The position numbers and the translations under genes were made by a program. Below the pieces are notes generated by a model. The model was not told the DNA's origin and did no database searches. It was given only the letters and a program-made list of their open reading frames with translations. DNA of 64,000 bases from an uncultured Pseudomonadales bacterium (GTDB taxonomy: Bacteria; Patescibacteriota; Microgenomatia; UBA1400; PJMF01), in assembly GCA_964511345.1 (NCBI GenBank), contig CAZEEV010000002.1, positions 66,770 through 130,769 of the forward strand. The letters are read 5' to 3'. Shown piece after piece: positions 1-55,722 of the stretch. Every line of letters begins with the position of its first letter. Position 1 is the stretch's first letter.

Positions 1-1
1 C

Positions 2-229
2 ATCTGGGTACTCTTTAACTTCATTATGGCTGGATTTACTTATATTACAGCTAATGGTGACAGCGGTGCTTACGCCAAAATTGGAGAAAAATTAGCCCTT
101 AGCGCCACTGGTTTATTGCTCATTGTCGCTTCTTACACTATCGCCGGTATCCTCGGATTACTAATTTTTGGCGATGCGACTTACATTATTAATCCACAAA
201 TACCAACAGCAATACCAACAGGTACCTAA
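2..229 (+). CDS. T4SS pilin-like (TrbC/VirB2-like) small two-TM protein, 5'-truncated by window edge (paralog 0 of a tandem array)
   Basis: Reading frame is open from nt 2. Its C-terminal pattern (ITANGDSG...KIGEKL...TM helix) parallels the W-I-T-[AS]-G-[GS]-D-[KS]-x-K loop and second TM of the five downstream paralogs. Confidence 0.45.
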   Translation: MWVLFNFIMAGFTYITANGDSGAYAKIGEKLALSATGLLLIVASYTIAGILGLLIFGDATYIINPQIPTAIPTGT

Positions 230-231
230 TT

Positions 232-582
232 ATGGCAGACATCGGAACTATACAACCAATTACAGAAGCGAGAGCTCCAAAGACTTTGGACAATGCTGGC
301 TTTACCGATTCGCTAGAACTTTATATTAGCGACATCATTGGAGCAATTACTGTTTTAGCGGTATTATTCTTCCTTGTTTATTCCTTTTTAGCCGCTTATG
401 AATGGGTAACCGCTGGATCTGACAGTGGCAAAGTGGAAAAAGCTAAAAATAGATTTATTTGGGGAACTTTGGGACTAGTCTTAATTGTCGCTGCCTATGC
501 TATTGTTGGTTTAATTGGTAGCTTAATCGGTATTTCAGTCTTAAATCCAGGAGAATTATTTCAAAATATTATTCCTAAATAA
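232..582 (+). CDS. T4SS pilin-like (TrbC/VirB2-like) two-TM protein, paralog 1
   Basis: 116 aa. TM1 is followed by the loop 'YEWVTAGSDSGKVEKAKNR' and then TM2. This is the same architecture as its neighbours. Confidence 0.55.
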   Translation: MADIGTIQPITEARAPKTLDNAGFTDSLELYISDIIGAITVLAVLFFLVYSFLAAYEWVTAGSDSGKVEKAKNRFIWGTLGLVLIVAAYAIVGLIGSLIGISVLNPGELFQNIIPK

Positions 583-605
583 AAACAAGTGAGTCTGATC
601 AAAAT

Positions 606-1022
606 ATGAAATTAAATAAAAAAACTCTTTTAGCTAGCCTTTTATCTTTGAGTATTTTTTTCTTAATGGTATCTTCTGCTCGAGCAGCCATCTCTAATCC
701 AGTGATAGGCGATCTCGGAACTAATGAAGGCGCTGAAGATGGCAGTAAATTTATCAATTACGTTGTCTATTTATGGAAAGTAAGTATTAATCTCGGAGCT
801 TTAGCTGTAATTGCTTATTTTATTTGGGGAGCAATTGAATGGATCACTGCTGGCTCTGATAGCAAAAAAACCGAAGGCGCCAGACAAAGAATGACTAATG
901 CTATCATTGGCTTAGTAATTTTGGTTTCCTCTTTTACCCTTCTCAGTTTCATCAGTAAGATATTCTTTGGAAATAGTTTTGATTTATTAAAACTAACCTT
1001 ACCAAGTCGATTGGGTAATTAA
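606..1022 (+). CDS. T4SS pilin-like two-TM protein with cleavable signal peptide, paralog 2
   Basis: 138 aa. N-terminal signal peptide (…SSARA/AIS), then TM1, the loop 'IWGAIEWITAGSDSKKTEGARQR', and TM2. Confidence 0.6.
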   Translation: MKLNKKTLLASLLSLSIFFLMVSSARAAISNPVIGDLGTNEGAEDGSKFINYVVYLWKVSINLGALAVIAYFIWGAIEWITAGSDSKKTEGARQRMTNAIIGLVILVSSFTLLSFISKIFFGNSFDLLKLTLPSRLGN

Positions 1023-1024
1023 AT

Positions 1025-1363
1025 ATGACAAGACAACTTGCACTTACATTAGACATTGCTGGCGAAGCACAAAGCCAAGATTTGCAGGGAGCACAATTTC
1101 ACAATACCAGTGACGGCGGTTTTGGTAATTGGTTTGGCAACATTATGACCGTGGCAATGACCTTAGCTGCTATTTTAGTTTTTGGTTTTCTGATCTGGGG
1201 AGCAGTGGAGTGGATCACTTCTGGAGGAGATAAAAGTAAAGTAGAAAGTGCTAGAAATAAAATTAGCAATGCCGTTATGGGCTTGATTGTTTTGGCAGCG
1301 GTAACCGCTCTGTTTGTTGTGGTAGAAGAATTCTTAGGAATAGATGTTTTGACATTTAATTAA
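1025..1363 (+). CDS. T4SS pilin-like two-TM protein, paralog 3
   Basis: 112 aa with 'LIWGAVEWITSGGDKSKVESARNK' between two hydrophobic helices. It starts 3 nt after paralog 2. Confidence 0.6.
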   Translation: MTRQLALTLDIAGEAQSQDLQGAQFHNTSDGGFGNWFGNIMTVAMTLAAILVFGFLIWGAVEWITSGGDKSKVESARNKISNAVMGLIVLAAVTALFVVVEEFLGIDVLTFN

Positions 1364-1388
1364 AATTTAACTAAACTTGATATATAAT
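1359..1388 (+). promoter_or_regulatory. Candidate sigma70-like promoter internal to pilin array (TATAAT at 1383-1388; weak -35 TTAAAA), followed by AAGGAG RBS at 1410-1416
   Basis: TATAAT hexamer lies about 35 nt upstream of the paralog 4 ATG. A strong Shine-Dalgarno sequence sits 8 nt before the ATG. Confidence 0.3.
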
Positions 1389-1423
1389 AATTTAGAAATT
1401 TAATAAGTAAAAAGGAGCGATTT

Positions 1424-1828
1424 ATGAAATCAATTAAAAAACTTGCTTTGGCCACTGGAGCTGCCATGAGTAGCATGCTTGCTACTGCGTCAGTAGTAAT
1501 GGCAGATGTCAAAATTGATCCAATTGATACTGGCAAAGGTTATGCCACTAATTTTGGAACCATGTTTAGCTCTATTCTTAATGTAGTAATGCTTGTCGCT
1601 GCCATCTTGGTTTTTGCTTACATGATTTGGGGTGGCGTAGAGTGGATTACTTCTGGCGGAGATAAAAGTAAGGCTGAAAGTGCTAGAAACAAATTAACCG
1701 CTGCCATTATTGGTTTAGTGATTATTGCTGCTTCATATGCCGTAGTCACCTTAGTGGTTCAGTTCTTGGGCTTCAAAGATTTTAATGATGTCTTCAATAA
1801 TGTTGGAGATATTAACAACCCAAGGTAA
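1424..1828 (+). CDS. T4SS pilin-like two-TM protein with signal peptide, paralog 4
   Basis: 134 aa. Signal peptide (…VVMA/DV), then 'MIWGGVEWITSGGDKSKAESARNK', then TM2. It is followed by a strong terminator. Confidence 0.6.
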   Translation: MKSIKKLALATGAAMSSMLATASVVMADVKIDPIDTGKGYATNFGTMFSSILNVVMLVAAILVFAYMIWGGVEWITSGGDKSKAESARNKLTAAIIGLVIIAASYAVVTLVVQFLGFKDFNDVFNNVGDINNPR

Positions 1829-1845
1829 TCATCAAGAATTTAGAA

Positions 1846-1876
1846 AAACCCGCTTCTTAACCAAGCGGGTTTTTTA
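1846..1876 (+). terminator. Rho-independent terminator (aaacccgctt…aagcgggtttttt)
   Basis: GC-rich 9-10 bp stem with a 6-nt loop and a T6 run, immediately after the paralog 4 stop. Confidence 0.7.
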
Positions 1877-1925
1877 ATACTTAATTTTGCTTTAGGAAAA
1901 AATAAAGATATAATCTAAAAAAGAC

Positions 1926-2291
1926 ATGAAAATAATCCCACAAGCTTATGCTCAAACTAAAGAATGGTCAGAAATTGGCGCCGGTTGTGTCAGCGAAGAT
2001 GGCGTCGCCACGGTTCAAGGTTTTGGTTGCATGATGGCCAACGTGTTATCGGTCTTTTTAACCGTACTCGGCATTGTAGGATTTGTCATGATCATCTACG
2101 CAGCTTTCAACATGATGATTATGGGTGGTAATAGCCAAGCAACTGAGAAATCCAAAAATACCATTACCTATGCCATTATTGGGATTATTCTAGCCTTATC
2201 GTCTTTTATCATTATTAATCTAATTGCCAACTTCACTGGATTGGATGTGATTAAAAATTTCTCTATTCCTGGTTCTGGGAAGCAATGGTAA
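1926..2291 (+). CDS. Divergent T4SS pilin-like two-TM protein, paralog 5
   Basis: 121 aa with two hydrophobic helices separated by 'MGGNSQATEKSKNT'. It keeps the array architecture but its loop motif is degenerate. A TATAAT sits at 1909-1914 with TTGCTT 16 nt upstream. Confidence 0.45.
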   Translation: MKIIPQAYAQTKEWSEIGAGCVSEDGVATVQGFGCMMANVLSVFLTVLGIVGFVMIIYAAFNMMIMGGNSQATEKSKNTITYAIIGIILALSSFIIINLIANFTGLDVIKNFSIPGSGKQW

Positions 2292-2309
2292 AAACCAAGT
2301 CGGTTAAAC

Positions 2310-2987
2310 TTATTTTCCAAATCTTCTCTGTCTCTGCGCATAGTCTTCTAATGCTTTAGCAAATTCTTTTTCATTAAAATCAGGCATTAAAACATCGGTA
2401 AAATACAGCTCACTATAAACTGTTTGCCAAGTTAAAAAGCCAGATAATCGTTTTTCTCCACCGGGGCGAATTAATAAATCTGGATCAGGTAAAACAATCA
2501 TTTTTTGTGTATCCAAAAATTGCACAAAATTCTCTTTACCCGCTTGCACTGCTCTTTGGATTTCATCTCTGCCTCCATAATTAAGAGCAAAAGTCACAAT
2601 TAATTTTTGATTTTTTTTAGTTTCTTTCACCCAAAAATTAACTCCATCTTGAATATCTTTTGGAAAGCGACTCAAGTCACCGATAACAGCCACTCTCACT
2701 CCTTTTTTATGTAATTTTCCTGCACTTGTGGCAAAAGTTTCGCGAAAAAGATCCATTAATCCGCCCACTTCTTCTTGAGAACGCTGCCAATTTTCCGTAC
2801 TAAAAGCCCACAGAGTTAGATAACTAATTCCCTTAGCAATAGCAAAATCTGCTAAACGTTCAATAATTTCTTCGGCTACTTTACGATGACCCTTAATAAT
2901 CGATAGGCCATGTTGACGAGCCCAACGACGATTGCCATCCATAATAATTGCTACGTGTTGAGGAGTTAGTGATTTTATTTCTGCCAT
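2310..2987 (-). CDS. uppS: Undecaprenyl-diphosphate synthase (cis-isoprenyl transferase)
   Basis: Hallmark motif 'HVAIIMDGNRRWA' plus 'YLTLWAFSTENW…R' motifs. 225 aa. Confidence 0.85.
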   Translation of the reverse strand: MAEIKSLTPQHVAIIMDGNRRWARQHGLSIIKGHRKVAEEIIERLADFAIAKGISYLTLWAFSTENWQRSQEEVGGLMDLFRETFATSAGKLHKKGVRVAVIGDLSRFPKDIQDGVNFWVKETKKNQKLIVTFALNYGGRDEIQRAVQAGKENFVQFLDTQKMIVLPDPDLLIRPGGEKRLSGFLTWQTVYSELYFTDVLMPDFNEKEFAKALEDYAQRQRRFGK

Positions 2988-3562
2988 AAGATTAAAGATT
3001 GGTCAATTTTCTTAATAATTTCTGTGGTTCCCAAAAAAAGATTAAACCATGGAGCTAACTTCTTCTCCCCTATTTTTTTAAGTTTGAGATCATTCCAATT
3101 CTCCCAATCAATAGCACTTACTTCATCTAAATTGGGAGAGATTTCCAGATTAGCACTCGCCTTTTCATTTAAAATTGAAATAAAAAGATGATCAATTTCA
3201 TTTTCGCAGAAATCATCCTCACAAGAAACTTGATAATCAAAAACCATGAATTCTTTTACTGTTCCAATTTGGTTTAGGTCTATTCTTAATTCTTCAACTA
3301 ACCGCCGTCTGAGAGTTTGCGAATGATTCTCTCCAGGCACTACATTGGCACACAAAGTATTAGCCCACTGCATGGCTCCCACAATTTTTTGACCACTCCG
3401 TTGTTGTAATAAAAGTTCAAATTCTCCATTTTTATTTTTACGAAACAGAAATAAAGAAACAGCCTGATGTTTTTTACCATCACCTCGATGAGCATCTAGC
3501 AAATCAGTTTGACCAATTATTTTATCTTCAGAGTTAACTAAGTTCACTTGTCTCATAAACAA
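2975..3562 (-). CDS. idi: Isopentenyl-diphosphate delta-isomerase, type 1 (Nudix fold)
   Basis: Matches 'HRGDGKKHQAVSLFLF…LLQQRS…KIVGAMQW…' and Nudix-like 'RRRLVEELRIDL'. Overlaps uppS by 13 nt, giving an isoprenoid pair. Confidence 0.65.
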   Translation of the reverse strand: MFMRQVNLVNSEDKIIGQTDLLDAHRGDGKKHQAVSLFLFRKNKNGEFELLLQQRSGQKIVGAMQWANTLCANVVPGENHSQTLRRRLVEELRIDLNQIGTVKEFMVFDYQVSCEDDFCENEIDHLFISILNEKASANLEISPNLDEVSAIDWENWNDLKLKKIGEKKLAPWFNLFLGTTEIIKKIDQSLILWQK

Positions 3563-3613
3563 AAGCTATTCTACTATGAATTTCTGACGAATGTTATAAT
3601 TGCCAGACGAAAC

Positions 3614-5857
3614 ATGCTAGATAAACAATACCAATCCCAAGATCACGAAGACCAAATCTACCAATTATGGCTAGATCATGATTGCTTTAATCCAGATAGC
3701 GAAATTAATCAAAAATTAAAGGCAAAGTCGAAAAAATCTCAAGAAAGTTTTTCGATTATTATGCCACCACCTAATGCCAATGATCCTTTGCACGTTGGCC
3801 ACGCCATGTTCGTCACTCTTGAGGATATTTTAATTCGTTTTGCCCGCATGCAAGGTAAAGACACTGTTTGGGTTCCGGGCACAGATCACGCTGGCATTGA
3901 GACTCAATTTGTTTACGAAAAAAAATTAAAAAAAGAAGGCAAAAGCCGTTTTAATTTTGATCGAGAAACTCTTTTCCAAATGATTTGGGATTATGTAAGT
4001 GAAAACTCCGCGATTGCTGTTGATCAAATTAAAAAACTTGGCGCCAGCGCAGATTGGAGCCGTTATAAATTTACCCTAGATAAAGACATTGTTAAAACTG
4101 TCATCGAAACCTTCATTAAAATGAATGGGGACGGATTGGTTTATCGTACCAATCGCTTGGTAAATTTTTGTCCCAAGTGTGGCACTGCTTTTAGCAATTT
4201 GGAGGTTGACCATAAAGAACAAAATGCTTCTCTTTATTACATCCAATATGGCCCTTTTGTATTAGCGACTACCAGACCAGAAACTAAGTTTGGCGACACT
4301 GGACTAGCTGTTCATCCAACTGACAAACGCTATCAACAATACGTCGGTAAAGAAATTGAAGTTGAGGGTCTGAATGGTAAATTTAAACTCAAAGTAATTG
4401 CCGATGAATTTGTCGATAAAGACTTTGGTACTGGGGTGGTGAAAATCACTCCTTATCATGATTTTAATGATTTTGCTGCCTGGCAAAGACACAAGGATGA
4501 ATTGCCAGATCCAATTCAAATTGTCGATTTTGAAGGACGTTTAACTAAAGCAGCTGGCAAATATGCTGGCCTTAAAATAGTTGTTGCCAGAGAACAAGTA
4601 GTTAAAGATCTAGAAGAAAAAGGCTTGTTAGTAAAAGTTGACAAAAATTACCATAACAATTTGAGTGTTTGTTATCGTTGTGGCAATCCAATTGAGCCGC
4701 TTCCCCTTCCTCAGTTTTATATTAAAGTTAAAGAACTTACTCAAGCAGTTATTGAAAAAATCGACCAAGGAGAAGTTAAGGTTTATGGCGCAGGTCATGA
4801 CAAAATTTTACGTCATTGGCTAGAAACTTTGGAAGATTGGAATATTAGCCGCCAGATTGTTTGGGGTATTCGTTTGCCAATTTGGTACAAAATTGATGAA
4901 AACCTGGATGCACAGATTACTTTTATCGATCATGAGCAGCAACGCATTAGCGGAAAGCTTGGAGAACTTTTAAAAAAGTATCAAATCGAGGATATTAGAA
5001 CTGGCTTGCAAAGTATAAATACAAGTGTAAGCGCAAAATACCTAATCATCAAAGAAAATCCAGGAAGTGAATACCTTCAAGAAACTGACACTTTTGACAC
5101 TTGGTTTTCTTCCAGTCAGTGGCCTTTTGTCACATTGATGAATAATAAACCAGGTGATTTTGAAAGATTCTACCCCACCAACACCATGGAAACTGCTTAT
5201 GACATTTTAATGTTCTGGGTAATGAGAATGTTAATGATGGGTATTTATAAAACTGGAAAAACTCCCTTTAAAAACGTTTATCTGCATGGACTGATTAGAG
5301 ACACTAAAGGACAAAAAATGAGCAAGAGTAAGGGCAATGTAGTCAATCCTATGGAAATCAGTGAAAAATATGGCACTGACGCGCTCAGAATGGCTCTTTC
5401 TATTCGTTCTTCCGCCGGTTTAGACAAATCTGTTGGCGACGGCGATTTCAAAGCTGCTCGCAACTTTAGCAATAAACTCTGGAATGCCAGTCGTTTTATT
5501 TTGATTACTAGAGAAGAAAGTGAAAATCATCAAAATTCTCCTTGCGCCAATGATCAAATTTTCAAGGACAAATTAAAGCAAATCACCAAAGACATTAATA
5601 AAAATCTAAATTCTTTTCAAATTGGTGTAGCTGCTGACACACTTTATAACGAATTTTGGCATTGGTTTTGCGATCAATGCATTGAAGAATCTAAAAAGGG
5701 ATTGATAAATCAATCTTTAATGTTCGATGGTCTAGTAACATTTCTAAAATTACTCCACCCCTTTATTCCCTTTGTCACTGAAGCAATTTGGCAAGAATTG
5801 GTTAAACAAAAACTGGTAGAGGAAGCAGTTCTTGCTAGCAGTATTTGGCCAGAATAG
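3614..5857 (+). CDS. valS: Valyl-tRNA synthetase (compact form); ORF-track start at 3548 is probably too early, likely start is ATG at 3614
   Basis: Class I HIGH motif 'PPPNANDPLHVGHA', 'WVPGTDHAGIETQ', and KMSKS as 'KMSKSKGNVV'. The N-terminus 'LDKQYQSQDHEDQIYQLWLD' is typical of ValRS. Confidence 0.7.
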   Translation: MLDKQYQSQDHEDQIYQLWLDHDCFNPDSEINQKLKAKSKKSQESFSIIMPPPNANDPLHVGHAMFVTLEDILIRFARMQGKDTVWVPGTDHAGIETQFVYEKKLKKEGKSRFNFDRETLFQMIWDYVSENSAIAVDQIKKLGASADWSRYKFTLDKDIVKTVIETFIKMNGDGLVYRTNRLVNFCPKCGTAFSNLEVDHKEQNASLYYIQYGPFVLATTRPETKFGDTGLAVHPTDKRYQQYVGKEIEVEGLNGKFKLKVIADEFVDKDFGTGVVKITPYHDFNDFAAWQRHKDELPDPIQIVDFEGRLTKAAGKYAGLKIVVAREQVVKDLEEKGLLVKVDKNYHNNLSVCYRCGNPIEPLPLPQFYIKVKELTQAVIEKIDQGEVKVYGAGHDKILRHWLETLEDWNISRQIVWGIRLPIWYKIDENLDAQITFIDHEQQRISGKLGELLKKYQIEDIRTGLQSINTSVSAKYLIIKENPGSEYLQETDTFDTWFSSSQWPFVTLMNNKPGDFERFYPTNTMETAYDILMFWVMRMLMMGIYKTGKTPFKNVYLHGLIRDTKGQKMSKSKGNVVNPMEISEKYGTDALRMALSIRSSAGLDKSVGDGDFKAARNFSNKLWNASRFILITREESENHQNSPCANDQIFKDKLKQITKDINKNLNSFQIGVAADTLYNEFWHWFCDQCIEESKKGLINQSLMFDGLVTFLKLLHPFIPFVTEAIWQELVKQKLVEEAVLASSIWPE

Positions 5858-5870
5858 GTATGATTGAAAG

Positions 5871-6305
5871 GTGATAAATAAAATCACTTCAACCCTCCAA
5901 TTAGCATGTCTATGTTTTAGATTAACTTCTAATATTTTATTTTTTGGACTAAAACTTCTTTTAATTCGAGTTAAAGCACATAAAATCAACCCAGTTTTAT
6001 TTGTCATCTGCCTATTGTTGATTTGGCTTGGCAATTTATTGATTTATAACAAAAAAAGCACCCCCCAAACAGAAATCATTTTAGTTCCTGCTCTAAAACA
6101 GTCTCCAAATATTAGTTTGACAACAAAGCGTTTTTTATTAACAAAAAATAATGTGAAAAACTTATTAACAACCTACACTGAACTTGAGAAAAAAGATGTT
6201 AAAAATTTAGGTCTATATTTGAACTTAAGTCAACTTGAGAATGTGAACGGCAACGAACAGCTGGCACAAGAATATCTAGAACAAGCAAAAAACATTGCTC
6301 CATGA
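5871..6305 (+). CDS. Hypothetical small membrane-anchored protein
   Basis: ORF only, with a hydrophobic N-terminus and low-complexity Lys/Asn-rich sequence. No recognisable motif. Confidence 0.25.
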   Translation: MINKITSTLQLACLCFRLTSNILFFGLKLLLIRVKAHKINPVLFVICLLLIWLGNLLIYNKKSTPQTEIILVPALKQSPNISLTTKRFLLTKNNVKNLLTTYTELEKKDVKNLGLYLNLSQLENVNGNEQLAQEYLEQAKNIAP

Positions 6306-6332
6306 TTATCACATAATTAATTTAGTGAAATC

Positions 6333-7025
6333 TTAAGATTCTGCAACTGGTTCAGTTGATTTTTGTTCGGCTGATTTATCACCTTCACCACCCTCTTCAG
6401 CTTTCTCACCAACTAATTCTGGTTCAACTAATTCACCGCTGGTTTCTTCCTCAATTACTTCTTCAGCTTTTTCTTGAACTAAAACTAGAACAACATCTTC
6501 AGGTTTTTCTTCTTCACCCAAAACTAGAGTTATTTTGCTCTTATCAAAGACTAAAGAATCCAGAGTAATACGGTCACCAATCGCTTTTAATTGACTTTGA
6601 TCAATTTCAAAATTGGCCGGCACGTCGGTTGGCAAAGCTTCGACTTCTACACTATCTTTAGCCAAAACCAAAACTCCATTGTCAACATCAAATTCGCCCA
6701 CCAACTCGATAGAAACGTCAGCGTGAATTTTCTCAGAAAGATTAATTTTTCTAAAAACCACGTGTAAAATTTCTTTACCAAAAACGTCATATTGAACTTC
6801 GTCAATTAAAACTGGTAATTCCTTTTGTTCGCCTTCAATTTGCAAATAAAGAATAGCATTTTCATTTAAATTGCGAATTAATTTGGTAAAAATACCATTA
6901 TTCAATTCTAAAGCAATTGATTCTTTACCTGCCTGATACATATTGGCAGGAATTAAACCTTCACGGCGCAATTGATTGTTTTTTTTATTTTGTTTTTTTG
7001 CAACAAGCAACTTAGTTTTTTCCAT
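6333..7025 (-). CDS. rplY: Ribosomal protein L25 (Ctc/general-stress form) with acidic C-terminal tail
   Basis: N-terminus 'KLLVAKKQNKKNNQLRREGLIPANMY' and the L25 beta-barrel pattern, followed by a Glu-rich tail. Confidence 0.7.
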   Translation of the reverse strand: MEKTKLLVAKKQNKKNNQLRREGLIPANMYQAGKESIALELNNGIFTKLIRNLNENAILYLQIEGEQKELPVLIDEVQYDVFGKEILHVVFRKINLSEKIHADVSIELVGEFDVDNGVLVLAKDSVEVEALPTDVPANFEIDQSQLKAIGDRITLDSLVFDKSKITLVLGEEEKPEDVVLVLVQEKAEEVIEEETSGELVEPELVGEKAEEGGEGDKSAEQKSTEPVAES

Positions 7026-7250
7026 ACTTTTAGATTAAGACCTTTCCTAGTTAACAGGCAGTTATTCTATCACAGCTGAATCAGACTTAAAAGCCAAGGT
7101 AAAAATTGTCTAATTAAAATAATGATTTTGTTAACAAACTATATCAAACTAAAAAACAATTTTTTGTAAGAAAAAATATAAAAAAAGATTGATAGACAAG
7201 TTTGTTATTGCAATGAACACAAGAATCGCACGTGAAAATTTAACACAAAT

Positions 7251-10181
7251 TTATTGATCAAAAGAAATCGCAAATAAAAAGTGATCTAAGTTTTTATTCT
7301 CAAAACGGATGACTTTGTCTTGATACTTTGCCTGTGGAGCAATTAGTTGTGGCTTGAACTTTTCTTCAAAAACAATTTGATAATTGGTTATTTTGTTAAA
7401 GACACCGGCTTGTTTTTGATCAAGGAAAACATATGAAAACGGTGTATTCATTTGATTTGGAACTAAATAAGTAATCACCAACTCCACTTTGCTCTGCTTG
7501 GGAATTTCTATCAGCATTGACAGTTCCCTACTTTGTTCTGCATCAACAATCTTAACCCGACTTAAATCAACCACTCGTCCATTTAATTCTACTTTTTCTA
7601 AGTTGGCTGAAGCATGTAAATAAAATCTTAAATAATTTTTGTAAACGCCAAGTGGCCAAAAATCGCTTGTAGCATTATTCTCAAAAATTATTTTGCGCTT
7701 GTGGCGGATGAATTTTTCACTAATCCCCAAACTATGCTCAATTCTTTCTGAAATATAAGGATTAACCTTATTTATCCCAACATTTGACTCTACCTGGAAA
7801 AATGAATCAACTAGACAATTATCCTGTTTAAATTCGATTGGACAAACCAGATCAGCTTTTTCCCCACCCCAAGAATTACCCTCAATAGCCTGTTGGAGTA
7901 TCTGATGACCGCTGAATAATAGAATCTCTTTTTGATTTAATTGTTCAAGCAACAATTTATTAACCATAGATAGCTCATGACTAGATAATTTCATAAGCCT
8001 ATCAACCAAGGCATTCGCAAATTTCCAGGTAAAGCTGTCTTTATTAGAAGTACTTTTAGAATCAATAATTACAGTTTCTTCTTGTTTGGCTAAATAATTA
8101 GCGGCGTTAATTATTAAATCATCACTAGCTTTTAGCTCTCCTACGACAGTTAGTAGTTCTTTAACCACTTTAGTGTTTAAAACAATTACCAGGTCAATTT
8201 TTGAACCAGTTGCTTGCTCTACAAACCATTGTATTTCTTGGCCACTTTTGGCAAAATCAGCTTGCCAATTAGCATCGTGTAAAAGAGCGTTTTCTTCTTT
8301 TAATAAGTCTTTTACCTCTGGTAAAACCGCTTTCTGTCCATAAACCCTATTGTCTAAATCGTCGACGTGAAAAATTTGTTGATCAATTAAATTAGCATTA
8401 TTAAAACCAAATAGTACTGCTTCTGTTAGAAATCCCCCAGTGGCTCTTAACTCTCCGCTATCCTGCATTAAAACTAAAACATTTACTCTACCCGATTGTA
8501 AAATAAAATCCTTAAAAACGGGAAGAAATCTTTTAAGCTGTAGATTATTCTTTAAATCTGTTTTAGTTTTCTCTAAATTGTCTTGCCACATCTTTTTTTC
8601 TTGTTCTTGATAAAGATCTAAGTTTAAATTCATCAAATAAGCATTAAAATCTTTTTGATAGGCAATTTGCTGATCAAGTTCTAATAAAATTTGATCATAA
8701 AAATGATTTAATTCCACACCGCCTTCAATGGTTTTCTTATATAAATCAAAAACAGCTTGATCAAATTTTATTCCATCTTGATAGAGACTAGAGATAATCG
8801 TACTAAGTTTTTGCAAGTCAACAGCTTCGGTTAAACTTTCACTGGGAAGAAGTTTTGCGTACTGAGCTAGCTGAAAAGAAAAAATGCGATAATTAATTGA
8901 TTTATCAATGTTTTTTTCTATATCAAGCGGCTTACTGATTATTTCATCAAGTTGCTTTTTCAGAATTTTTTGATTTAAGTTGAAAAGAGAGAATAAGCTT
9001 AATGCCAAAAAGCTAATTCCGAAAATAATAGTTCCTAGCCAAAATAAAAGCTTCCTTTTTTTAGTTTTATGTAAAATTGTTGTTCCTTGAGTAATATTTT
9101 TTTCTTGTCTGGATTTTTTCTCCTGATGTCTTTGAGTAGAGAAGAGGTTTTCAATTTTACTCGCAAACTCAGAGCTAGAATCTTTACTTAGAAGCTCTTC
9201 AATAGGTTCTTTATGGGCTTGCCGATTCACTTTTACGCTAGCATAAGGGATAGTTTTATGAAGCTTGTTTTGAACCTTTTGTTTTTTAAGTTGTAAAGCC
9301 CTTTGTGTTCTACTTACTTGTAGAGCTTTTTCTAATTCCTCTTCTGATGGAAAGGGTAAGTCACTATCAAAATCAATTAGACCACGAATTTTTTGATCAA
9401 TTATTTTGTCTATTTGAGTTTTACTATTGTTAACTACACTAAATTCTCTAATGAAAGGATGTTTTTTCTCGTTAGTTAAAAGCTTAATCGTCTGAAGCTT
9501 CTTTTGAAAATACTGTTCATAAAGATAAATAATTTGCTGAGCTAATTTAGCAGAAGAAAGTTTAGCCCCCTTAATTAAAAATTTACCGGCCTGATGGGGC
9601 TTAATTAGATATTCTTTAATTAAATTAAAAAAACTTCTTTCATCCTGAAAATAAAAATTATTCTGCGCATCAAAAACATAATTTCTTTTCACTGCAGAGA
9701 AGAACAGGAGTAGAGGATAAGTGACTTTTTTATTAGCAACTAAAACATCTTGCGCTAAAAAAGCCGTACTATTGGGAAATTGACTGAAAAAAGATCTCAA
9801 AAAATTTTCTTGCTTAGTTAAAAAATCATTATAGCCGAAGTCGAAATCATCTAAAATTTCTAAAGAAGTGCTTAAGGCAGAAATTAAAATCAAAGGAATT
9901 TTCTGATTTTTAGCTTGATTGAGTAAAGTTAAAAAATTAAAAACTTCTTCCATCACTTTTTGCGCTATGCTTTGAAAGCCATAAATAAAAATTATTTTAT
10001 AAATGTCTTTTTTGCGTTCAGCTAGTTCACGGTAATTGAGAAAAAAATCTTGATCCAGATGGATTAATTCGACACTTAGCGCCTTATTTTGCAAAAATTC
10101 CACGACAAAATCGGCAAGTAGATGACCTTGTTCAGAAATAACTAAAAACACAGAATCCTGTGTGACTGGATTATCTTCCAT
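7251..10181 (-). CDS. Large hypothetical bitopic membrane protein (976 aa; cytoplasmic N-domain, single TM near residue 375, ~580-aa extracytoplasmic domain)
   Basis: Long intact ORF with one strong hydrophobic helix 'LLFWLGTIIFGISFLALSLFSLF'. No motif I can name confidently. Confidence 0.45.
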   Translation of the reverse strand: MEDNPVTQDSVFLVISEQGHLLADFVVEFLQNKALSVELIHLDQDFFLNYRELAERKKDIYKIIFIYGFQSIAQKVMEEVFNFLTLLNQAKNQKIPLILISALSTSLEILDDFDFGYNDFLTKQENFLRSFFSQFPNSTAFLAQDVLVANKKVTYPLLLFFSAVKRNYVFDAQNNFYFQDERSFFNLIKEYLIKPHQAGKFLIKGAKLSSAKLAQQIIYLYEQYFQKKLQTIKLLTNEKKHPFIREFSVVNNSKTQIDKIIDQKIRGLIDFDSDLPFPSEEELEKALQVSRTQRALQLKKQKVQNKLHKTIPYASVKVNRQAHKEPIEELLSKDSSSEFASKIENLFSTQRHQEKKSRQEKNITQGTTILHKTKKRKLLFWLGTIIFGISFLALSLFSLFNLNQKILKKQLDEIISKPLDIEKNIDKSINYRIFSFQLAQYAKLLPSESLTEAVDLQKLSTIISSLYQDGIKFDQAVFDLYKKTIEGGVELNHFYDQILLELDQQIAYQKDFNAYLMNLNLDLYQEQEKKMWQDNLEKTKTDLKNNLQLKRFLPVFKDFILQSGRVNVLVLMQDSGELRATGGFLTEAVLFGFNNANLIDQQIFHVDDLDNRVYGQKAVLPEVKDLLKEENALLHDANWQADFAKSGQEIQWFVEQATGSKIDLVIVLNTKVVKELLTVVGELKASDDLIINAANYLAKQEETVIIDSKSTSNKDSFTWKFANALVDRLMKLSSHELSMVNKLLLEQLNQKEILLFSGHQILQQAIEGNSWGGEKADLVCPIEFKQDNCLVDSFFQVESNVGINKVNPYISERIEHSLGISEKFIRHKRKIIFENNATSDFWPLGVYKNYLRFYLHASANLEKVELNGRVVDLSRVKIVDAEQSRELSMLIEIPKQSKVELVITYLVPNQMNTPFSYVFLDQKQAGVFNKITNYQIVFEEKFKPQLIAPQAKYQDKVIRFENKNLDHFLFAISFDQ

Positions 10182-10230
10182 TACTAAAACATTTTAGAAC
10201 AAAATAGGGAGCTAAACAAATCTGGTAAAA

Positions 10231-10653
10231 TTAAATCAGAGCAGTGTCCATGGCTTGATTGGCGAGCAGATCAGCCATTTTGTTTTCTTCACGTGAAATA
10301 TGTTTGATTTCACAGGTAGAGCAGGGTAGTATGCTTAAAATTTGCCAATTTTCTTGAGCTAAGGTTTGTAAGCGTGTTTCTTTGATTTTCCAATTTTTAT
10401 TCATTTGCTCAACGACTAATTTAGAATCTAATTTGAAAACTAAAGCGACTGAAGATTTCAAGTGTTTTTTTAAATACAAAAGAGCTAGGTTTAACGCCAG
10501 ATATTCAGCTTCATTGTTGGTTTTTAAACCTAAATATTGGTATTCCCGATGAATTTCTAATCCTTTTTCATCAATCATATAAACACCAGCGCCAGCAATT
10601 CCTGGATTACCCCTAGAACCTCCGTCAGTAAAAATAGTGATTTTTTCCTGCAT
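10231..10653 (-). CDS. rnhA: Ribonuclease HI
   Basis: Matches 'IFTDGGSRGNPGIAGAGVYM…TNNEAEYLAL' and a C-terminal DDE-type residue pattern. Confidence 0.75.
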   Translation of the reverse strand: MQEKITIFTDGGSRGNPGIAGAGVYMIDEKGLEIHREYQYLGLKTNNEAEYLALNLALLYLKKHLKSSVALVFKLDSKLVVEQMNKNWKIKETRLQTLAQENWQILSILPCSTCEIKHISREENKMADLLANQAMDTALI

Positions 10654-10685
10654 ATTTACCGCTTTATTAACGCAAAGCCTGGTGA

Positions 10686-11144
10686 TTATTCTTCTTTTAG
10701 TTTAATCAGTAAAACTCTTTCCTCATTTCTATCTTCTGAATAGCTCTCTAAATTACCAAGGGTTTTATCTTCAGTGAGCACGCTATGAACCAAAAAGCGC
10801 TCATAAGAGTTTAAGCCATGCATTTCTTCTGTTTCACCTGTCTCTAGAACTCTTCTTGCTAATTCCAGAGCCTTGTCTTTCAACCTGTTTTCCAAACCAC
10901 TGCGATATTCATTAATATCTAGCATAATTTTCTTGTCTGAAAAATCATCCTTGAAAGATAATTTCGTAAGCAATTCTAAAGCCTCAAGTGTTTCACCTCT
11001 ATTACCAATCAAAAGAGCGGCTTCAGTTTGTGAGACTGTGACAATAATTTTTAGTCGATCATCGCTTTCTTCTAAAACGATTTCAAAATCATCATCAACT
11101 CCCAGATGTTTAATTAATTTTTCGAGATATTCTTGAACTTTCAT
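10686..11144 (-). CDS. jag: Jag/KhpB RNA-binding protein (KH + R3H domains)
   Basis: KH-like 'LLIGNRGETLEALELL' and R3H-like 'MHGLNSYERFLVHSVL'. It sits immediately downstream of yidC. Confidence 0.7.
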   Translation of the reverse strand: MKVQEYLEKLIKHLGVDDDFEIVLEESDDRLKIIVTVSQTEAALLIGNRGETLEALELLTKLSFKDDFSDKKIMLDINEYRSGLENRLKDKALELARRVLETGETEEMHGLNSYERFLVHSVLTEDKTLGNLESYSEDRNEERVLLIKLKEE

Positions 11145-11148
11145 TTTT

Positions 11149-12126
11149 TTACTTTCTGTTTTTGTTTTTATGACGTTTTAGTCTACTTGCCTTTTTAGGT
11201 TTAGTAGCATTTGTGTTTCTTGGCTTAATAGCATTATTGCTGCCATCAATGTTTTTTAAAACATTGGCTAATTCTCCACCGGTGGAGTTTTTTATAAATA
11301 AAGGGCTTTTTTTAAGATGAATTTTCTTAGGAATTTTAGTTAACACCTTGGCTTCTGGAATTTTTATATACTTATTTTTAAACGGACCAAATTTAGTTAT
11401 ATATTTATTCCAATAAGTGGCTAAACCACCCCAACCAGAAACGAAATATTGAGTCACCATAGTGATAATAGTTCCAGCAATCCAATATAGAGCTAATCCC
11501 GATGGTAATTTAAGGGCGATGACTGTAGTCATAATTGGCATAAGAAAAATCATTTGTTGCTGCATAGTGGCGGCCATCTCAGCAACATCCTCTTCTTTCT
11601 TATTCGCCTCTTGAATAGGTTTTAAACTTGAGTTGTTTTTAACAACGTCTCTAGTTTGAGTAGCTGGAGAAACCATTAATGATAAAAGAAATTGAGTGAC
11701 TCCAGCAATAATTGGTAAGACATAGATAGAGTCTGGCTGACTCAAATTCACCCACAAAAAGCTTAGGTTAAAATTTAATTCTGGGCTGTTAAATAATTTA
11801 ATAATAGCCTGATATAAAACAATTAAAATAAAAAGTTGCAATAATTGAGGTAGGCAACCAGCAAGAGGATTAATGTTATAGCTTTTATAAAGCTGAGATT
11901 GGGCTAAAGCTAAACCTTGCTTATCTTTACCATACTTTTCTTTCAATTTTTTAATTTCTGGTTGCAACTCTTGCATCTTTTTACTCGACTTAACACTAGG
12001 TAAGGTCAAGGGTAATAAGGCTAAACGAATTAAAATAGTAAAAACAATAATTGTTAAGCCGAGATTGTTAAAAACAGAATATAAAAAAACTAAAATTGAG
12101 GTAAAAAAACTAATAAATAAATTCAT
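11149..12126 (-). CDS. yidC: Membrane protein insertase YidC/Oxa1 (short Gram-positive-type)
   Basis: Five-TM YidC core pattern with a Lys-rich C-tail, in the conserved rnpA-yidD-yidC-jag context. Confidence 0.8.
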   Translation of the reverse strand: MNLFISFFTSILVFLYSVFNNLGLTIIVFTILIRLALLPLTLPSVKSSKKMQELQPEIKKLKEKYGKDKQGLALAQSQLYKSYNINPLAGCLPQLLQLFILIVLYQAIIKLFNSPELNFNLSFLWVNLSQPDSIYVLPIIAGVTQFLLSLMVSPATQTRDVVKNNSSLKPIQEANKKEEDVAEMAATMQQQMIFLMPIMTTVIALKLPSGLALYWIAGTIITMVTQYFVSGWGGLATYWNKYITKFGPFKNKYIKIPEAKVLTKIPKKIHLKKSPLFIKNSTGGELANVLKNIDGSNNAIKPRNTNATKPKKASRLKRHKNKNRK

Positions 12127-12136
12127 TTAAAAAATC

Positions 12137-12337
12137 CTAGAAGTGGCGACAATTAATAACTCGCCACAAACCTTGTATTAACCCGACAATTGTACCATTT
12201 TTTTTAACTTGTGCAGCCGTGTAAGTACTGCAGCTTGGATTCTGCCTACAAGTAGAGGTGAAACCGAATAAAGAAATAAATAATTGATGCTTAAACAATC
12301 TAAATGAAGAATAGGTTTTTTTAAGAATCTTATACAT
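12137..12337 (-). CDS. yidD: Membrane protein insertion efficiency factor YidD
   Basis: 66 aa with 'CRQNPSCSTYTAAQVKKNG…GLWRVINCRHF', matching the YidD signature. Confidence 0.75.
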   Translation of the reverse strand: MYKILKKTYSSFRLFKHQLFISLFGFTSTCRQNPSCSTYTAAQVKKNGTIVGLIQGLWRVINCRHF

Positions 12338-12701
12338 GACTAGAATTTACATGAATTAAAATTTTTTTCATTAAATCAGTAAAGTCTTTTTTTAAAAGCT
12401 CTTTTTGTTCAATAAAATTTCTTTTTAAAACTATTACTAAATCAGCTTTAAAATCGGTTTTAAGAATTCCTTTTTGAAACTGCTCTTCAACTAATGAATA
12501 AATAAAACGTCGATAATAATTTCTTAAAGTAGCTTTAGTTAAAGCTGTTTTAGGAGTAAGACAAGTGATTTTCAAATCATCTTGATTTGATCTTATATAA
12601 ACTAGAAAAAACCTAGAATTAATTAAAAAAGAGTTTCCTTTTTCAAAAATAGAGGAATTTTGCTTAAGAGAAAGATTTAGACGATTTTTTTTAGCTAACA
12701 T
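12330..12701 (-). CDS. rnpA: RNase P protein component
   Basis: 123-aa basic protein. 'KKNRLNLSLKQ…' at the N-terminus, then 'TLRNYYRRFIYSLVEE'. Position between rpmH and yidD supports the call. Confidence 0.65.
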   Translation of the reverse strand: MLAKKNRLNLSLKQNSSIFEKGNSFLINSRFFLVYIRSNQDDLKITCLTPKTALTKATLRNYYRRFIYSLVEEQFQKGILKTDFKADLVIVLKRNFIEQKELLKKDFTDLMKKILIHVNSSHV

Positions 12702-12713
12702 TTATGATTAGGT

Positions 12714-12860
12714 TTACCAATGCTTGGCAACAGCTAATTTCCTTCTGCCTTTAGCGCGTCTGCGTTTAATGACAATTTGTCCAGTAAGAGTTTGCATTCT
12801 TTTTAAGAAACCATGCATTCTCATTCTTTTTTTCTTTTTAGGATTCCATGTTCTTTTCAT
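12714..12860 (-). CDS. rpmH: Ribosomal protein L34 (48 aa; below the 60-aa cutoff of the ORF track)
   Basis: Hand translation of the minus strand gives [48 protein letters not shown], matching the canonical L34 pattern (MKRT.QPS…R.HGF..RM.T..G..V...RRAKGR..L). Confidence 0.85.
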
Positions 12861-12899
12861 AAGTTAGAGATTATATCATAAAAAATGCTTAACTACAGG

Positions 12900-14009
12900 C
12901 TAATTATTTACTCTAAATGGCATAGCAATATAGAAATAATTATCAATTTTAGTGTCTTTAAAAATAGCCGGTTTTAAACTTTCATTCATACCAAAAACTA
13001 AAAAGTTGGGTTTGACAGCATTAATAAAATCAATCAAATAATTGACATTAAAAGCAATTTCTCCCGTCATTTCAGAAGAGTTTTTTATCATAATCTCGCC
13101 AGAATATTCGCCTGAAGAAGGAGATTGTGAAGAAATTAGCATTCTTTCTTTTTCTATTGTTAATCTCACAATATTAGAGGCATCTCTAGAGAAAATAGCT
13201 GCTCTTTTCAGTTGAGTTAAAAATTCTTCACCTTCAAATTCAACTGTTAAATTGAAATTTGGAGGAATTATTTTCTCATAAGGAGGATAATCACCCTCAA
13301 TTAGACGAACATACATTTCAACGCTATTTATTTTAAACAGTAATTGCTTTAATTCGTCTGAAACTAGTATTTGAACACTCTTAACTTCTGTTTGTTTAGC
13401 AATTCTATAAAGCTCATTTAAGGCTTTGGCGGGAATCAAAATTGCCTTCTCCTGTTTTGAGTTAATTGTTTTAAGGAATAAGCTGCTTAAACGAAAGCCA
13501 TCTGTAGCAATTACCTCCAAGCCTTTATCATTAAATTTTAATAGCAAAGCAGTTAAAACTGGTCTACTCTGATCGAGACTGGCGCAAAAAGAAACTAAAT
13601 TCTGAATTTTTTCCAAATCTTCAATATCTAAAGAAAAAAAATCCCCCTCCACAATTGGAAAACTCGGAAATTCCTCACTGTTTTGACAAGCTAGGCGACT
13701 AACTGTTTTTCCTTGAGAAATAATTAAAAAATTATCTTTTAATTTAAGAGAGATTTTACCGTTTTCCAAAGAATTAATAATGCTTTTAAACAATTCACCA
13801 TTAACTATTAATTCTCCTTCTTCTTCCACTTCAATTATTAATTCTGTTTTAATTCCTAAATAAAGATCGGTTGCAGAGAGCACGAGCTTGCTTCCTTTAA
13901 CACTTAAAAGGATTGAAGATAAAACAGTGATTTGTGGTTTGGTGGGAATTACTTTTTGAAGGTAATTAATAGAGTTTTTTAAATTTTCTTGTAGAACATT
14001 GAATTTCAT
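12900..14009 (-). CDS. dnaN: DNA polymerase III beta sliding clamp
   Basis: N-terminus 'MKFNVLQENLKNSINYLQKVIP…ILSSILL' and the three-domain clamp pattern. 369 aa. Confidence 0.85.
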   Translation of the reverse strand: MKFNVLQENLKNSINYLQKVIPTKPQITVLSSILLSVKGSKLVLSATDLYLGIKTELIIEVEEEGELIVNGELFKSIINSLENGKISLKLKDNFLIISQGKTVSRLACQNSEEFPSFPIVEGDFFSLDIEDLEKIQNLVSFCASLDQSRPVLTALLLKFNDKGLEVIATDGFRLSSLFLKTINSKQEKAILIPAKALNELYRIAKQTEVKSVQILVSDELKQLLFKINSVEMYVRLIEGDYPPYEKIIPPNFNLTVEFEGEEFLTQLKRAAIFSRDASNIVRLTIEKERMLISSQSPSSGEYSGEIMIKNSSEMTGEIAFNVNYLIDFINAVKPNFLVFGMNESLKPAIFKDTKIDNYFYIAMPFRVNN

Positions 14010-14318
14010 ATTTTCTTTTATTTAATTATATATTTTTAGTAGTTGTAGTAGTAGGGTATGTGCGTAAGTTAATATTCATTCCTTTTTTAGTCTAGTCCAT
14101 TTCTTCTAAATTTATGTTTAAAAACGGTCTTTTATTGTTGATTATTTTGTTAGAATGTGTGAATTATTGTTTATAAAAATGAAAGTTTATTCACAGTCCT
14201 ATAAGTTTTTAATGTTATTGTTAACAAGCTTTCAACTTCTTTTCCACTGATTTTTCCACAATTGTTGATAAACTGAACTTACTTTTATGTTTAACATAAC
14301 TTTTAATTGATAAATCTG
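14010..14318. promoter_or_regulatory. Candidate oriC: AT-rich dnaA-dnaN intergenic region with DnaA boxes
   Basis: One perfect box TTATTCACA (14187-14195). One-mismatch boxes at 14158-14166 (reverse) and 14252-14260 (TTTTCCACA). A two-mismatch box at 14241-14249. A very AT-rich segment next to dnaN could serve as the unwinding element. Confidence 0.45.
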
Positions 14319-15896
14319 TTAATTTGATATAGCAATTAACGACATTTTCATTGCAGAAACATCTTGTTGAATATTTTGATCAATAATTAAGTCCTGTTCT
14401 ATCTTTTTAATAGCATGAATTACACTACTATGATCCCTACCGGAAAACCATTGCCCGATTTCCTCCAGAGGAATCTGCAACTCATTTCTTAGTAGATACA
14501 TAGCAATATGTCTAGCTTTCACTAATTCTTTACTACGTCTTTTTCCTCTAACAGCGCTCTGTTTTATACGATAATGATTGGCAACGGTTTTAATAATGTC
14601 TTGAGGTTTCGCTCTAATAATTTTTTGTTGATTTTGTCTAACTTCAGTTTGTAGGATTTTGTCAATTAAAGCAGAGTCGATGTTTAGATTCTGTAGTTCT
14701 ACTGCTGAACGAATTTTTTTAATAATCCCTTCAATACGACGAGCGCTATCAACTTGAGAGGCGATTTTTTGAGCCAATTCAATAGGAATATCAAGCTTAT
14801 TAGCCTGAGCTTTTAATAATAAAATAGCAGTGCGCAATTCAAAGGTTGGTTGTTGAATGTCAATCATGAGTCCAGCCTCAAAACGAGACCTTAGCCGGTC
14901 TTCTAAGAGACTTATCTCTTGCGGTGGTCTATCCGAAGTCATAATAATCTGTGAGTTGATAGCAATCAGAGCATTAAAAGTGTGAAAAAATTCTTCTTGC
15001 ACAGAATTTTTACCAGCAATAAATTGAATGTCGTCTAAAAGTAGGAGATTGGTTTTGCGATATTTGTTTTTTAATTGTAGAGTGTTGTGGGTTTTAATTG
15101 CCTTAACGATTTCATTGGTGAACTGTTCTCCAGAGGCATAAATAATTTCCGCTTCCGGGTTATTTTGTAGCATGTGGTGAGCAACCGCATGAATTAAATG
15201 GGTTTTACCAACTCCCACTCCACCATAGAGAAAAAGCGGATTGTAGCTAGTCCCTGGATTGTTAGCGACGGCTGTGGCTGCGGCGTGAGCCATTTCATTA
15301 CTCGACGAGACTGCAAAGCTTTCAAAAGTATAATCTTGTCTCAAACCGATCTGCGAGGCCCTAACCTTCAAACGATCAAAAGTATTGTTATTAATATTTG
15401 CTTGAGAAAACAACTCTTCCACTGTCGGCGAGGGACTATTTTGATTATTTCCAGGAAAACTTTTACCAAAAGCAAGATTATTTCTAGACTCATTGAAATT
15501 GCGTCCATTAATTTCTTTGTAAATCGATTCTTCTTTTTCTGTTTTTTCTGAGAAATAATCTATTTGTACTGAAGGTGATTTTTTATTGGCTTGTCTTAAA
15601 TCAGTGACAATAAACTCTATTTCAAGTGGTTTATTAATGTATTTTTCCAAAGCAGTTTTAATTTGCGAGTAAAGATTGGATTTGAGATTGGTTACATGGA
15701 AGGCAGTCATACAACTAATAGTGGCGATGGCTTTTTGATCATCCTCAATTTTAATAGAAGTGAGTGGACTAGGCACAATCCAAGTATTAAAAAAAGCCGG
15801 GCTAAGACTGGCCTCCAAATCAACCTTGGCCATTTGCCAGACTTGTTTTACTGTTTCTAAATCATAGATTTGTTCAGACATATCGTCTTTCTTCAA
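14319..15896 (-). CDS. dnaA: Chromosomal replication initiator DnaA
   Basis: Walker A 'GGVGVGKTHL', Walker B 'LLLLDDIQFIAG', and the C-terminal DNA-binding helix 'ELVKARHIAMYLLRNELQIPLEEIGQWFSGRDHSSVIHA'. Confidence 0.9.
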   Translation of the reverse strand: MKKDDMSEQIYDLETVKQVWQMAKVDLEASLSPAFFNTWIVPSPLTSIKIEDDQKAIATISCMTAFHVTNLKSNLYSQIKTALEKYINKPLEIEFIVTDLRQANKKSPSVQIDYFSEKTEKEESIYKEINGRNFNESRNNLAFGKSFPGNNQNSPSPTVEELFSQANINNNTFDRLKVRASQIGLRQDYTFESFAVSSSNEMAHAAATAVANNPGTSYNPLFLYGGVGVGKTHLIHAVAHHMLQNNPEAEIIYASGEQFTNEIVKAIKTHNTLQLKNKYRKTNLLLLDDIQFIAGKNSVQEEFFHTFNALIAINSQIIMTSDRPPQEISLLEDRLRSRFEAGLMIDIQQPTFELRTAILLLKAQANKLDIPIELAQKIASQVDSARRIEGIIKKIRSAVELQNLNIDSALIDKILQTEVRQNQQKIIRAKPQDIIKTVANHYRIKQSAVRGKRRSKELVKARHIAMYLLRNELQIPLEEIGQWFSGRDHSSVIHAIKKIEQDLIIDQNIQQDVSAMKMSLIAISN

Positions 15897-15940
15897 GATA
15901 GGGAGGGCAGAATGGAGCAGCTAAAAATCTTCGTGCTTAC

Positions 15941-15961: not shown

Positions 15962-15989
15962 ATTAGCAAGGGGCAATTTTTTAATGAAA

Positions 15990-55714: not shown

Positions 55715-55722
55715 ATAAAATT

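Follow-up and report, generated by a model that had tools for sequence, protein, structure and literature searches.

A tandem array of seven T4SS pilin-family genes with conserved gene order in Microgenomatia

A seven-gene array of T4SS_pilin proteins

The first 2,291 nt of the 64,000-nt stretch of Patescibacterial DNA analysed here (the window, to which all coordinates refer unless another contig is named) carry a tandem array of genes for small two-helix membrane proteins in the family of type IV secretion system (T4SS) pilins. Six homologous open reading frames (ORFs) lie there on the plus strand (up to 229, 232–582, 606–1022, 1025–1363, 1424–1828 and 1926–2291). An earlier note on this DNA had described these six as the array, and all of them are indeed same-strand homologues, but the full array has seven genes and its start lies upstream of the window. 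Specifically, the public contig L001, which is 100% identical to the window across the whole 11,828-nt overlap, extends further upstream and supplies both an extra pilin gene (g0, 142 amino acids (aa)) and the missing 5′ part of g1. We refer to the array genes as g0–g6, ORFs 1–6 of the earlier note being g1–g6. Two further pilin-domain genes, LA and LB, were found inside the window with a profile built from the array.

Only the 3′ part of g1 lies in the window (1–229); the full gene, at 8333–8806 of L001, starts 245 nt before the window and encodes a 157-aa protein with a signal peptide and a hairpin of two transmembrane (TM) segments. It is followed by g2 (232–582, 116 aa, a two-TM hairpin without signal peptide and with the loop TAGSDSGKVEKAK), g3 (606–1022, 138 aa, with a signal peptide) and g4 (1025–1363, 112 aa, without one), whose nearest paralogue is g5 at 44% identity. 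The fifth ORF of the window, g5 (1424–1828, 134 aa), which we propose as the major subunit, has a promoter, Shine–Dalgarno (SD) sequence and terminator of its own. The upstream module (1377–1417) consists of the promoter-like TTGATATATAAT at 1377–1388, with the −10 box at 1383–1388, and AAGGAG at 1412–1417, and the intrinsic terminator (1843–1877) is a stem-loop at 1843–1875 followed by a T-run. A TATAAT box at 1909–1914, 11 nt ahead of the start codon, precedes g6 (1926–2291, 121 aa), which would have a short leader or none; g6 is a divergent paralogue whose N-terminal segment carries two conserved Cys. All these features are on the plus strand.

The array paralogues of this genome share 19–44% mutual identity, and ORFs 2–6 align to the first ORF at 17–36%. 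Hydropathy gives each of the seven proteins two hydrophobic segments and a polar loop of 8–13 residues, and the AlphaFold2 model of g5 is a helical hairpin (H44–76 and H81–114) with predicted local distance difference test (pLDDT) values of 89–94, both in agreement with the two-TM architecture with optional signal peptide that had been described before. Signal-peptide-like N termini with AxA-type sites are present in the first, third and fifth ORFs of the window, the second and fourth being without them. The loop motif previously ascribed to all six occurs in exact form in the ORFs starting at 232, 606, 1025 and 1424, and not in the first or the last. In g6 the pre-sequence comprises only ten residues (MKIIPQAYAQ), lacks a hydrophobic core and ends at a conserved Q|T site; the AxAQ|T site is thus kept in the window g6, but it is the orthologue on L006 that has an ordinary 32-residue signal peptide. 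The N-terminal Cys pair of g6 is kept in five genomes. In a close relative (GCA_964637295.1; contig L003, 10520–11287), a 134-aa C-terminal extension, which contains two Cys-rich repeats and a CC-NGYH motif, brings the g6 orthologue to 255 aa.

Membership of PF18895 (T4SS_pilin; gathering threshold 26.6 bits) is firm on sequence grounds, in line with the family named in the earlier note. All five complete ORFs score above threshold (g2 43.5, g3 33.8, g4 34.3, g5 33.4 and g6 30.8 bits), as do LA (36.1 bits, residues 229–291) and LB (28.7 bits); g0 has a precomputed PF18895 match and g1 falls below the threshold at 20.7 bits. In a leave-one-position-out test, a profile made from six array positions in five genomes was scored on the seventh position, which was recognised every time (29–113 bits, including 48.7 for g1 and 68.6 for g6), so that the resemblance among the copies reflects homology, not chance. 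The family is large: a library search returned 66,876 representative clusters of T4SS_pilin-like proteins at E ≤ 0.001, and g5 has more than 200 homologues (E ≤ 0.001), mostly 130–137 aa long among the 120 listed. The best named match outside Pfam is to NF045849 (Mbov_0395/MMCAP2_0565), a pilin-like protein of Mycoplasma integrative and conjugative elements (ICEs), whose whole 80-residue model is covered, with scores of 34.6 (g2), 32.9 (g6), 28.9 (g5), 25.3 (g3) and 23.5 bits (g4) at E = 1e-8 to 3e-5, all below the cutoff of 40. The Mycoplasma protein, which is named as a single family, is encoded on a mobile element, whereas the window array lies in a chromosomal housekeeping neighbourhood.

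We consider it highly improbable that these are small membrane proteins unrelated to secretion, whether holin-like, bacteriocin-immunity or type IV pilus subunits. The two-TM small-protein architecture is admittedly generic, fold searches cannot discriminate among its bearers, and the JGI pipeline labels some orthologues “cytochrome bd-type quinol oxidase subunit 2”. However, PF18895 is the only family matched above threshold, and the Cyt_bd_oxida_II matches are faint or sub-threshold and due to hydrophobic repeats. Holin and bacteriocin families, which the earlier note had itself named as the alternative, gave no match in Pfam or PHROGs, the single PHROGs match being a weak one of g0 (E = 0.0028) to a family of unknown function. 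Type IV pilin identity was rejected, a regular-expression search of the seven proteins having found no class III leader or N-methylation motif (G/F-T-L-I-E), and true N-methyl pilins are encoded apart: three type IV pilin-like genes (N_methyl PF07963, one with a T2SSG domain) lie at 54980–56749 on the plus strand. Adjoining these, on the minus strand at 56801–63976, is a gene for a 2391-aa protein with four Laminin_G_3 (ConA-like lectin) domains, probably a surface adhesin, in a region of raised G+C content (44–46%).

G+C content ranges from 29 to 46% over the window and is about 37% in the array region; an Rfam scan of 1–16000 found no RNA family. The gene content of the window is typical of Patescibacteria, and the named relatives of g5 belong to Candidatus Woesebacteria and Pacebacteria (class Microgenomatia). 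Many related genome records (L007–L086) are titled “uncultured Pseudomonadales bacterium” and one complete genome of 853 kb (CP011212.1) bears the title “candidate division TM6”; these titles look mislabelled, since both the content and the closest named relatives are Patescibacterial.

Order, copy number and expression signals across species

Four related genomes, in which g5 is 90, 73, 64 and 55% identical to that of the window, each carry seven array genes, whose order and flanks are unchanged. Across genomes, proteins at the same position are 48–64% identical, as against 21–42% between positions, and 137 of 140 best matches in other genomes are to the same position. For a wider sample, one genome per species was scanned and the ORFs of the 80 loci recovered were classed with position-specific profiles. 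Every complete array proved colinear from g0 to g6 (63 of 63), 30 of them with the exact pattern 0123456; the variants comprise duplication of g1, duplication or triplication of g5, and loss of g3, whose slot is absent in some related arrays (pattern 012456). Since orthologous positions remain colinear down to about 45% identity, the duplications must be ancient and every copy has been retained. The hairpin and its loop are the most conserved parts of the proteins and the tails the least. On balance, we regard the array as a fixed, ancient set of seven paralogous T4SS pilins.

The earlier note had suggested that the array might be a repertoire for varying filament composition, and a similar role has been proposed in the literature (PMC12102498): interchangeable subunits would let the filament vary antigenically or in host range. 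Several observations speak for this possibility, namely the low identity of the paralogues and the fast evolution of their exposed tails, the several separate promoters that would permit differential expression, the copy number of 5–11 genes across species, and the presence of an ECF (extracytoplasmic function)-type sigma gene beside the array in 49 of 61 species. Yet each position forms its own orthologue group with its order kept, and the comparison of copy number among relatives, which the earlier note had suggested, confines the changes to g1, g5 and g3. A DNA repeat search found 71% identity between g4 and g5 across 180 nt and otherwise only short chance repeats; long near-identical tracts, inverted repeats that could serve for switching, and silent cassettes were all absent. 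Protein fusions of g2+g3, g3+g4 and g2+g4 further point to co-assembly, although they are rare (1–5 contigs each) and some may have arisen artefactually by frameshift or in assembly. The evidence thus does not support a rapidly varying repertoire, and we consider interchangeable subunits unlikely. A diversity-generating retroelement was also rejected as a candidate: the RVT_3 match at 10231–10653 is an ordinary RNase H, and the variable pilin regions are not repeat-templated. The VirB2 families of Bartonella and Anaplasma (cited in PMC12102498) likewise consist of several diverged tandem virB2 copies beside a T4SS, but these are thought to serve antigenic variation and are strain-variable, whereas the window array keeps its gene order and its position-wise orthology over many species.

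Within this set, g5 stands apart by its expression signals. TATAAT occurs only twice in the first 2,400 nt, at 1383 and 1909, upstream of the genes at 1424 and 1926, and AAGGAG only once, at 1412. The promoter module and terminator reported earlier are real, and they are conserved, but they flank the fifth ORF of the window and not the fourth, the numbering having been off by one. Four related genomes have the promoter and SD module ahead of g5, and the terminator hairpin (1843–1875, −17.1 kcal/mol, z = −4.9) varies in stem sequence among genomes while its structure is kept. A generic promoter scan was no richer than shuffled sequence (7 found versus 8.4 expected), so that the case for these signals rests on their conservation across species; the generic scan overlooked the terminator, since some of the T-run is base-paired within the stem. 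When the first g5 copy is compared with genes at the other array positions, a strong SD is found in 65% of species at g5 (0–7% elsewhere) and a downstream hairpin with T-run in 82% (0–4% elsewhere), and the median intergenic lengths flanking g5 are 90 and 133 nt, compared with 8–22 nt in the rest of the array. Most window genes have no SD at all, and a strong one precedes just 1 of the 39 others, a LysM and M23 peptidoglycan hydrolase gene (50527–51690, region 50510–51690) with the same AAGGAGCGATT as the g5 site. In addition, conservation is highest at g5, whose loop reaches 82% over 79 species, and g5 occupies one of the two duplicated slots, the other being g1. From the unique SD, the separate promoter and terminator, the highest conservation and the duplicated slot, we infer that g5 is the abundant major subunit. 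Different signals precede three other genes. TATAAT-like boxes are found ahead of g6 in four of five related genomes, with no SD there, and a TATAAT-like box 4–16 nt ahead of the start codon without an SD occurs at 70% of g0, 32% of g1 and 28% of g6 genes, which suggests very short leaders for all three.

Upstream of the array, an ECF-type sigma gene (TIGR02937 60.7 bits, cutoff 42.9) and two small membrane-protein genes lie on the minus strand (L001 6718–7816, that is, 760–1860 nt upstream of window position 1), divergent from g0, the start codons of g0 and of this trio being about 50 nt apart. The trio recurs in 49–53 of 61 species, and one of the small membrane proteins occupies the slot typical of an anti-sigma factor. 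This neighbouring pair of ECF sigma and anti-sigma factor may control the array or its filament; the visible array promoters look like housekeeping-type −10 boxes.

Topology, Cys-rich relatives and secretion machinery

The earlier note had taken the conserved loop to be exposed. The loops are, however, net basic (five of the seven carry three to four Lys or Arg), and the N-terminal tails are acidic. Because this charge fits the positive-inside rule, the loop probably faces the cytoplasm or the lumen of a filament and not the outside. In the F pilus and other solved conjugative pili, the loop between the helices borders the lumen and the two termini point outward (PMC5018250); if the window proteins were arranged alike, exposure would be lowest at the conserved loop and the variable tails would form the surface, which agrees with the conservation profile. 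Two kinds of fusion would also fit a hairpin whose ends are both outside the cell and whose loop is cytoplasmic. Cys-rich domains occur before the hairpin in LA and LB and after it in the g6 orthologue on L003, and 98 of the best 150 of the 66,876 family representatives (P0364–P0513) have 2–8 hairpins fused head to tail. One six-unit polyprotein lies inside an array, in its penultimate slot (L087, 1777–3435).

LA and LB, both on the minus strand, combine the pilin hairpin with large Cys-rich outer domains. LA (33966–34871, 301 aa) has a signal peptide, three six-Cys repeats (18 Cys) and a C-terminal PF18895 hairpin, and LB (34871–35761, 296 aa) likewise starts with a signal peptide and ends in a PF18895 hairpin, its outer domain containing 10 Cys. 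Homologues of LA come with two or with three repeats; across 39 of them the hairpin barely varies, and the outer domain shows about 50% identity but retains all its Cys. The g5 proteins of the window genome and GCA_964637295.1 share 90% identity, their LA proteins just 51%. The AlphaFold2 model of the LA outer domain is rich in beta-strands (pLDDT 80–93), and a Foldseek search of the LA model against the PDB left the Cys-rich domain without a match. In at least five more distant genomes, orthologues of LB and then LA stand directly upstream of g0 on the same strand, and we assign LA and LB to the array's system, in which they are the best candidates for a contact function, including contact with the host.

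The T4SS-like machine that the earlier note had placed about 14 kb away lies 13.7 kb from the array, beside dnaA and dnaN, and is of the monoderm type. Its genes, all on the minus strand, begin with that for a VirB4-like T4SS ATPase (15990–18140), which scores 393.8 bits against NF045971 (CD1110 family, cutoff 325), carries a Pfam P-loop_TraG domain and also matches the VirB4 of Mycoplasma ICEs (Mbov_0397, 276 bits). Pilin and ATPase thus both point to the class of ICEs found in monoderms, given the NF045849 and Mbov_0397 matches. There follow a TrsD-like protein resembling the N-terminal domain of VirB4 (18147–19517; weak NCBIfam matches to TrsD, E = 1e-4, and Mbov_0397, E = 1.6e-6), a PrgI (VirB3-like) membrane protein with a CarboxypepD_reg domain (19543–20400; PF12666 29.8 bits, cutoff 27) and a 1239-aa protein with an M23 peptidase domain (21469–25188; PF01551 E = 1.8e-4, below threshold), a candidate cell-wall hydrolase of the T4SS by analogy with the role described in PMC12102498. 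A coupling-protein-like ATPase of the VirD4/TrwB type (45517–47661, minus strand; PF10412 TrwB_AAD_bind 47.9 bits, cutoff 20.5) is encoded about 27 kb from virB4, which matches a remark in the literature that the two genes usually lie far apart in Patescibacteria. Near the T4SS cluster, the gene at 28521–30317 (minus strand) encodes a protein of 598 aa that has five or more hydrophobic segments, matches no family and is possibly a highly diverged VirB6-like channel component; VirB6 is reported to be scarce in Microgenomatia.

Assembly models and significance

Pilin arrays of this kind have already been published for Patescibacteria, and the window array is a correct rediscovery of one. A 2018 preprint (McLean et al., 10.1101/258137) described arrays of four to six small VirB2-related proteins with signal peptides beside VirB4 and VirB6 in Saccharibacteria (TM7x), and transposon sequencing by Wang et al. 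in 2023 found the pilin series within the T4SS cluster of Ca. Southlakia epibionticum ML1 to be essential (PMC10633639). Quinonero-Coronel et al. in 2025 surveyed 3,035 genomes with PF18895 and PF04956 and reported 441 arrays of 2–11 pilin genes, especially in Microgenomatia and Saccharimonadia, with identities averaging 25% and not exceeding 54%; the same authors remarked on T4SS genes beside dnaA and proposed a role in adapting to different hosts (PMC12102498). The association of pilin arrays with T4SSs in Patescibacteria is on record in the literature (PMC12102498, PMC10633639, PMC12857230). By the definitions of the 2025 survey, an array is a tandem or one-gene-spaced run of 2–11 low-identity pilins (seven here), accompanied by a Patescibacteria-type VirB4 with TrsD and PrgI, as in the window, and placed no more than 20 genes from virB4 (13 here). 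The window array shares with the other Patescibacterial arrays its tandem PF18895 genes of low identity, the VirB4, TrsD and PrgI genes beside dnaA and the absence of a relaxase nearby, but it lies 13.7 kb from virB4, whereas the array is inside the cluster in Saccharibacteria. We did not find in the McLean preprint, PMC10633639 or PMC12102498 that array positions are orthologous, that their order is strictly colinear, that g5 is monocistronic and alone has an SD, that an ECF sigma gene is linked to the array (the word “sigma” does not occur in PMC12102498) or that there are pilin-anchored Cys-rich proteins.

We favour, with moderate confidence, the reading that the seven PF18895 pilins belong with the monoderm-type T4SS near dnaA and are assembled by its VirB4, with g5 as the major subunit and the others specialised. 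Each protein would insert in the membrane as a two-helix hairpin, as hydropathy and the AlphaFold2 model indicate, with both ends outward and the conserved basic loop in the cytoplasm, as suggested by the charge and by the Cys-rich and head-to-tail fusions. By analogy with the F and T pili, the VirB4 machine would then extract the hairpins into a surface filament or an envelope-spanning tube, the loop lying in the lumen and the variable ends facing outward. In such a structure g5 would be the abundant subunit, g0–g4 and g6 low-abundance specialised subunits, and LA and LB candidate contact or tip factors. The proteins resemble VirB2/TrbC/TraA pilins (PF04956) in small size, helical hairpin, leader in some copies, short basic loop, variable termini and the presence of VirB4 in the genome. 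By contrast, the mature window proteins are longer (about 100 aa), the host is monoderm, and seven paralogues take the place of one pilin and a VirB5 tip protein.

Several points weigh against this reading. The TrbC/VirB2 membership suggested earlier does not hold, since no window protein reaches the PF04956 threshold of 27.9 bits (the best being LA with 16.8 bits, E = 0.0078, followed by g2 with 15.1 and g4 with 11.2), and an hhalign comparison of the g5 family with 25 bona fide VirB2 proteins (database proteins carrying PF04956) gave a probability of 2% at E = 0.023, which is not significant, the aligned regions being topologically congruent. Kinship to the proven VirB2/TrbC pilins appears weak, remote and transitive only, via relatives that pass both models: a g5 orthologue of 54% identity (P0109) has precomputed matches to both PF18895 and PF04956, and another relative (P0366) scores 223 bits with PF18895 and 51.2 bits with PF04956 TrbC. 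Neither did structure help, the helical hairpin being a non-discriminating fold: a Foldseek search of the g5 model against the PDB returned nothing significant, such hairpins resembling many unrelated helical proteins, and the g5-family profile run against all PDB sequences gave only chance matches to CD20. Thirteen housekeeping genes separate g6 from virB4, and the proximity of array and virB4 proves little because the whole neighbourhood is syntenic across the clade. The expression signals, for their part, are read from sequence. Finally, a filament has not been observed for any Patescibacterial T4SS, and T4SSs of the Gram-positive type are generally without pili (PMC12102498, PMC10633639); a 2025 review termed a possible pilus on such a system remarkable.

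The general lack of pili in such systems also speaks for a model without any extracellular filament, in which the seven hairpins would form a hetero-oligomeric channel spanning the membrane or wall, or a short stalk, of the T4SS. With its distinct subunits in a fixed order, the set resembles a stoichiometric complex, and the polyproteins of 2–8 hairpins would suit a ring or a polytopic channel. Conversely, the high-expression signals of g5 and its duplicated slot fit a polymer better than a 1:1 complex, and the Cys-rich outer domains carried on hairpins suggest display away from the cell, so that we regard a channel or stalk as rather unlikely.

At the opposite end, the favoured assignment of the pilins to the VirB4 machine can be extended, tentatively and with more doubt than belief, to a heteropolymeric VirB2-type filament in which g5 is the major subunit, the six other positions provide conserved minor subunits, and LA and LB present fast-evolving outer domains to the host, with polyproteins of 2–8 hairpins in some lineages. 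Such a division of labour is undescribed for any T4SS. Its closest parallel, by analogy and not by homology, would be the operons of type IV pili and type II secretion system (T2SS) pseudopili, which also combine one highly expressed major subunit, ordered and conserved minor subunits and adhesin-bearing subunits, but differ in fold, leader peptide, assembly ATPase and machinery. If this were true, the logic of major pilin, minor pilin and adhesin known from type IV pili would have an independently evolved counterpart built on another fold.

In the sole genetically tested Patescibacterium, host-dependent growth requires both the T4SS and its pilin array. The window locus leaves this published picture unchanged, and the comparison across species yields testable statements. 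The published suggestion of a mainly antigenic or host-range role in variation for such arrays is weakened, at least in the Microgenomatia clade compared here. Any filament should be dominated by g5, and the six other subunits, being individually conserved, are probably individually needed.

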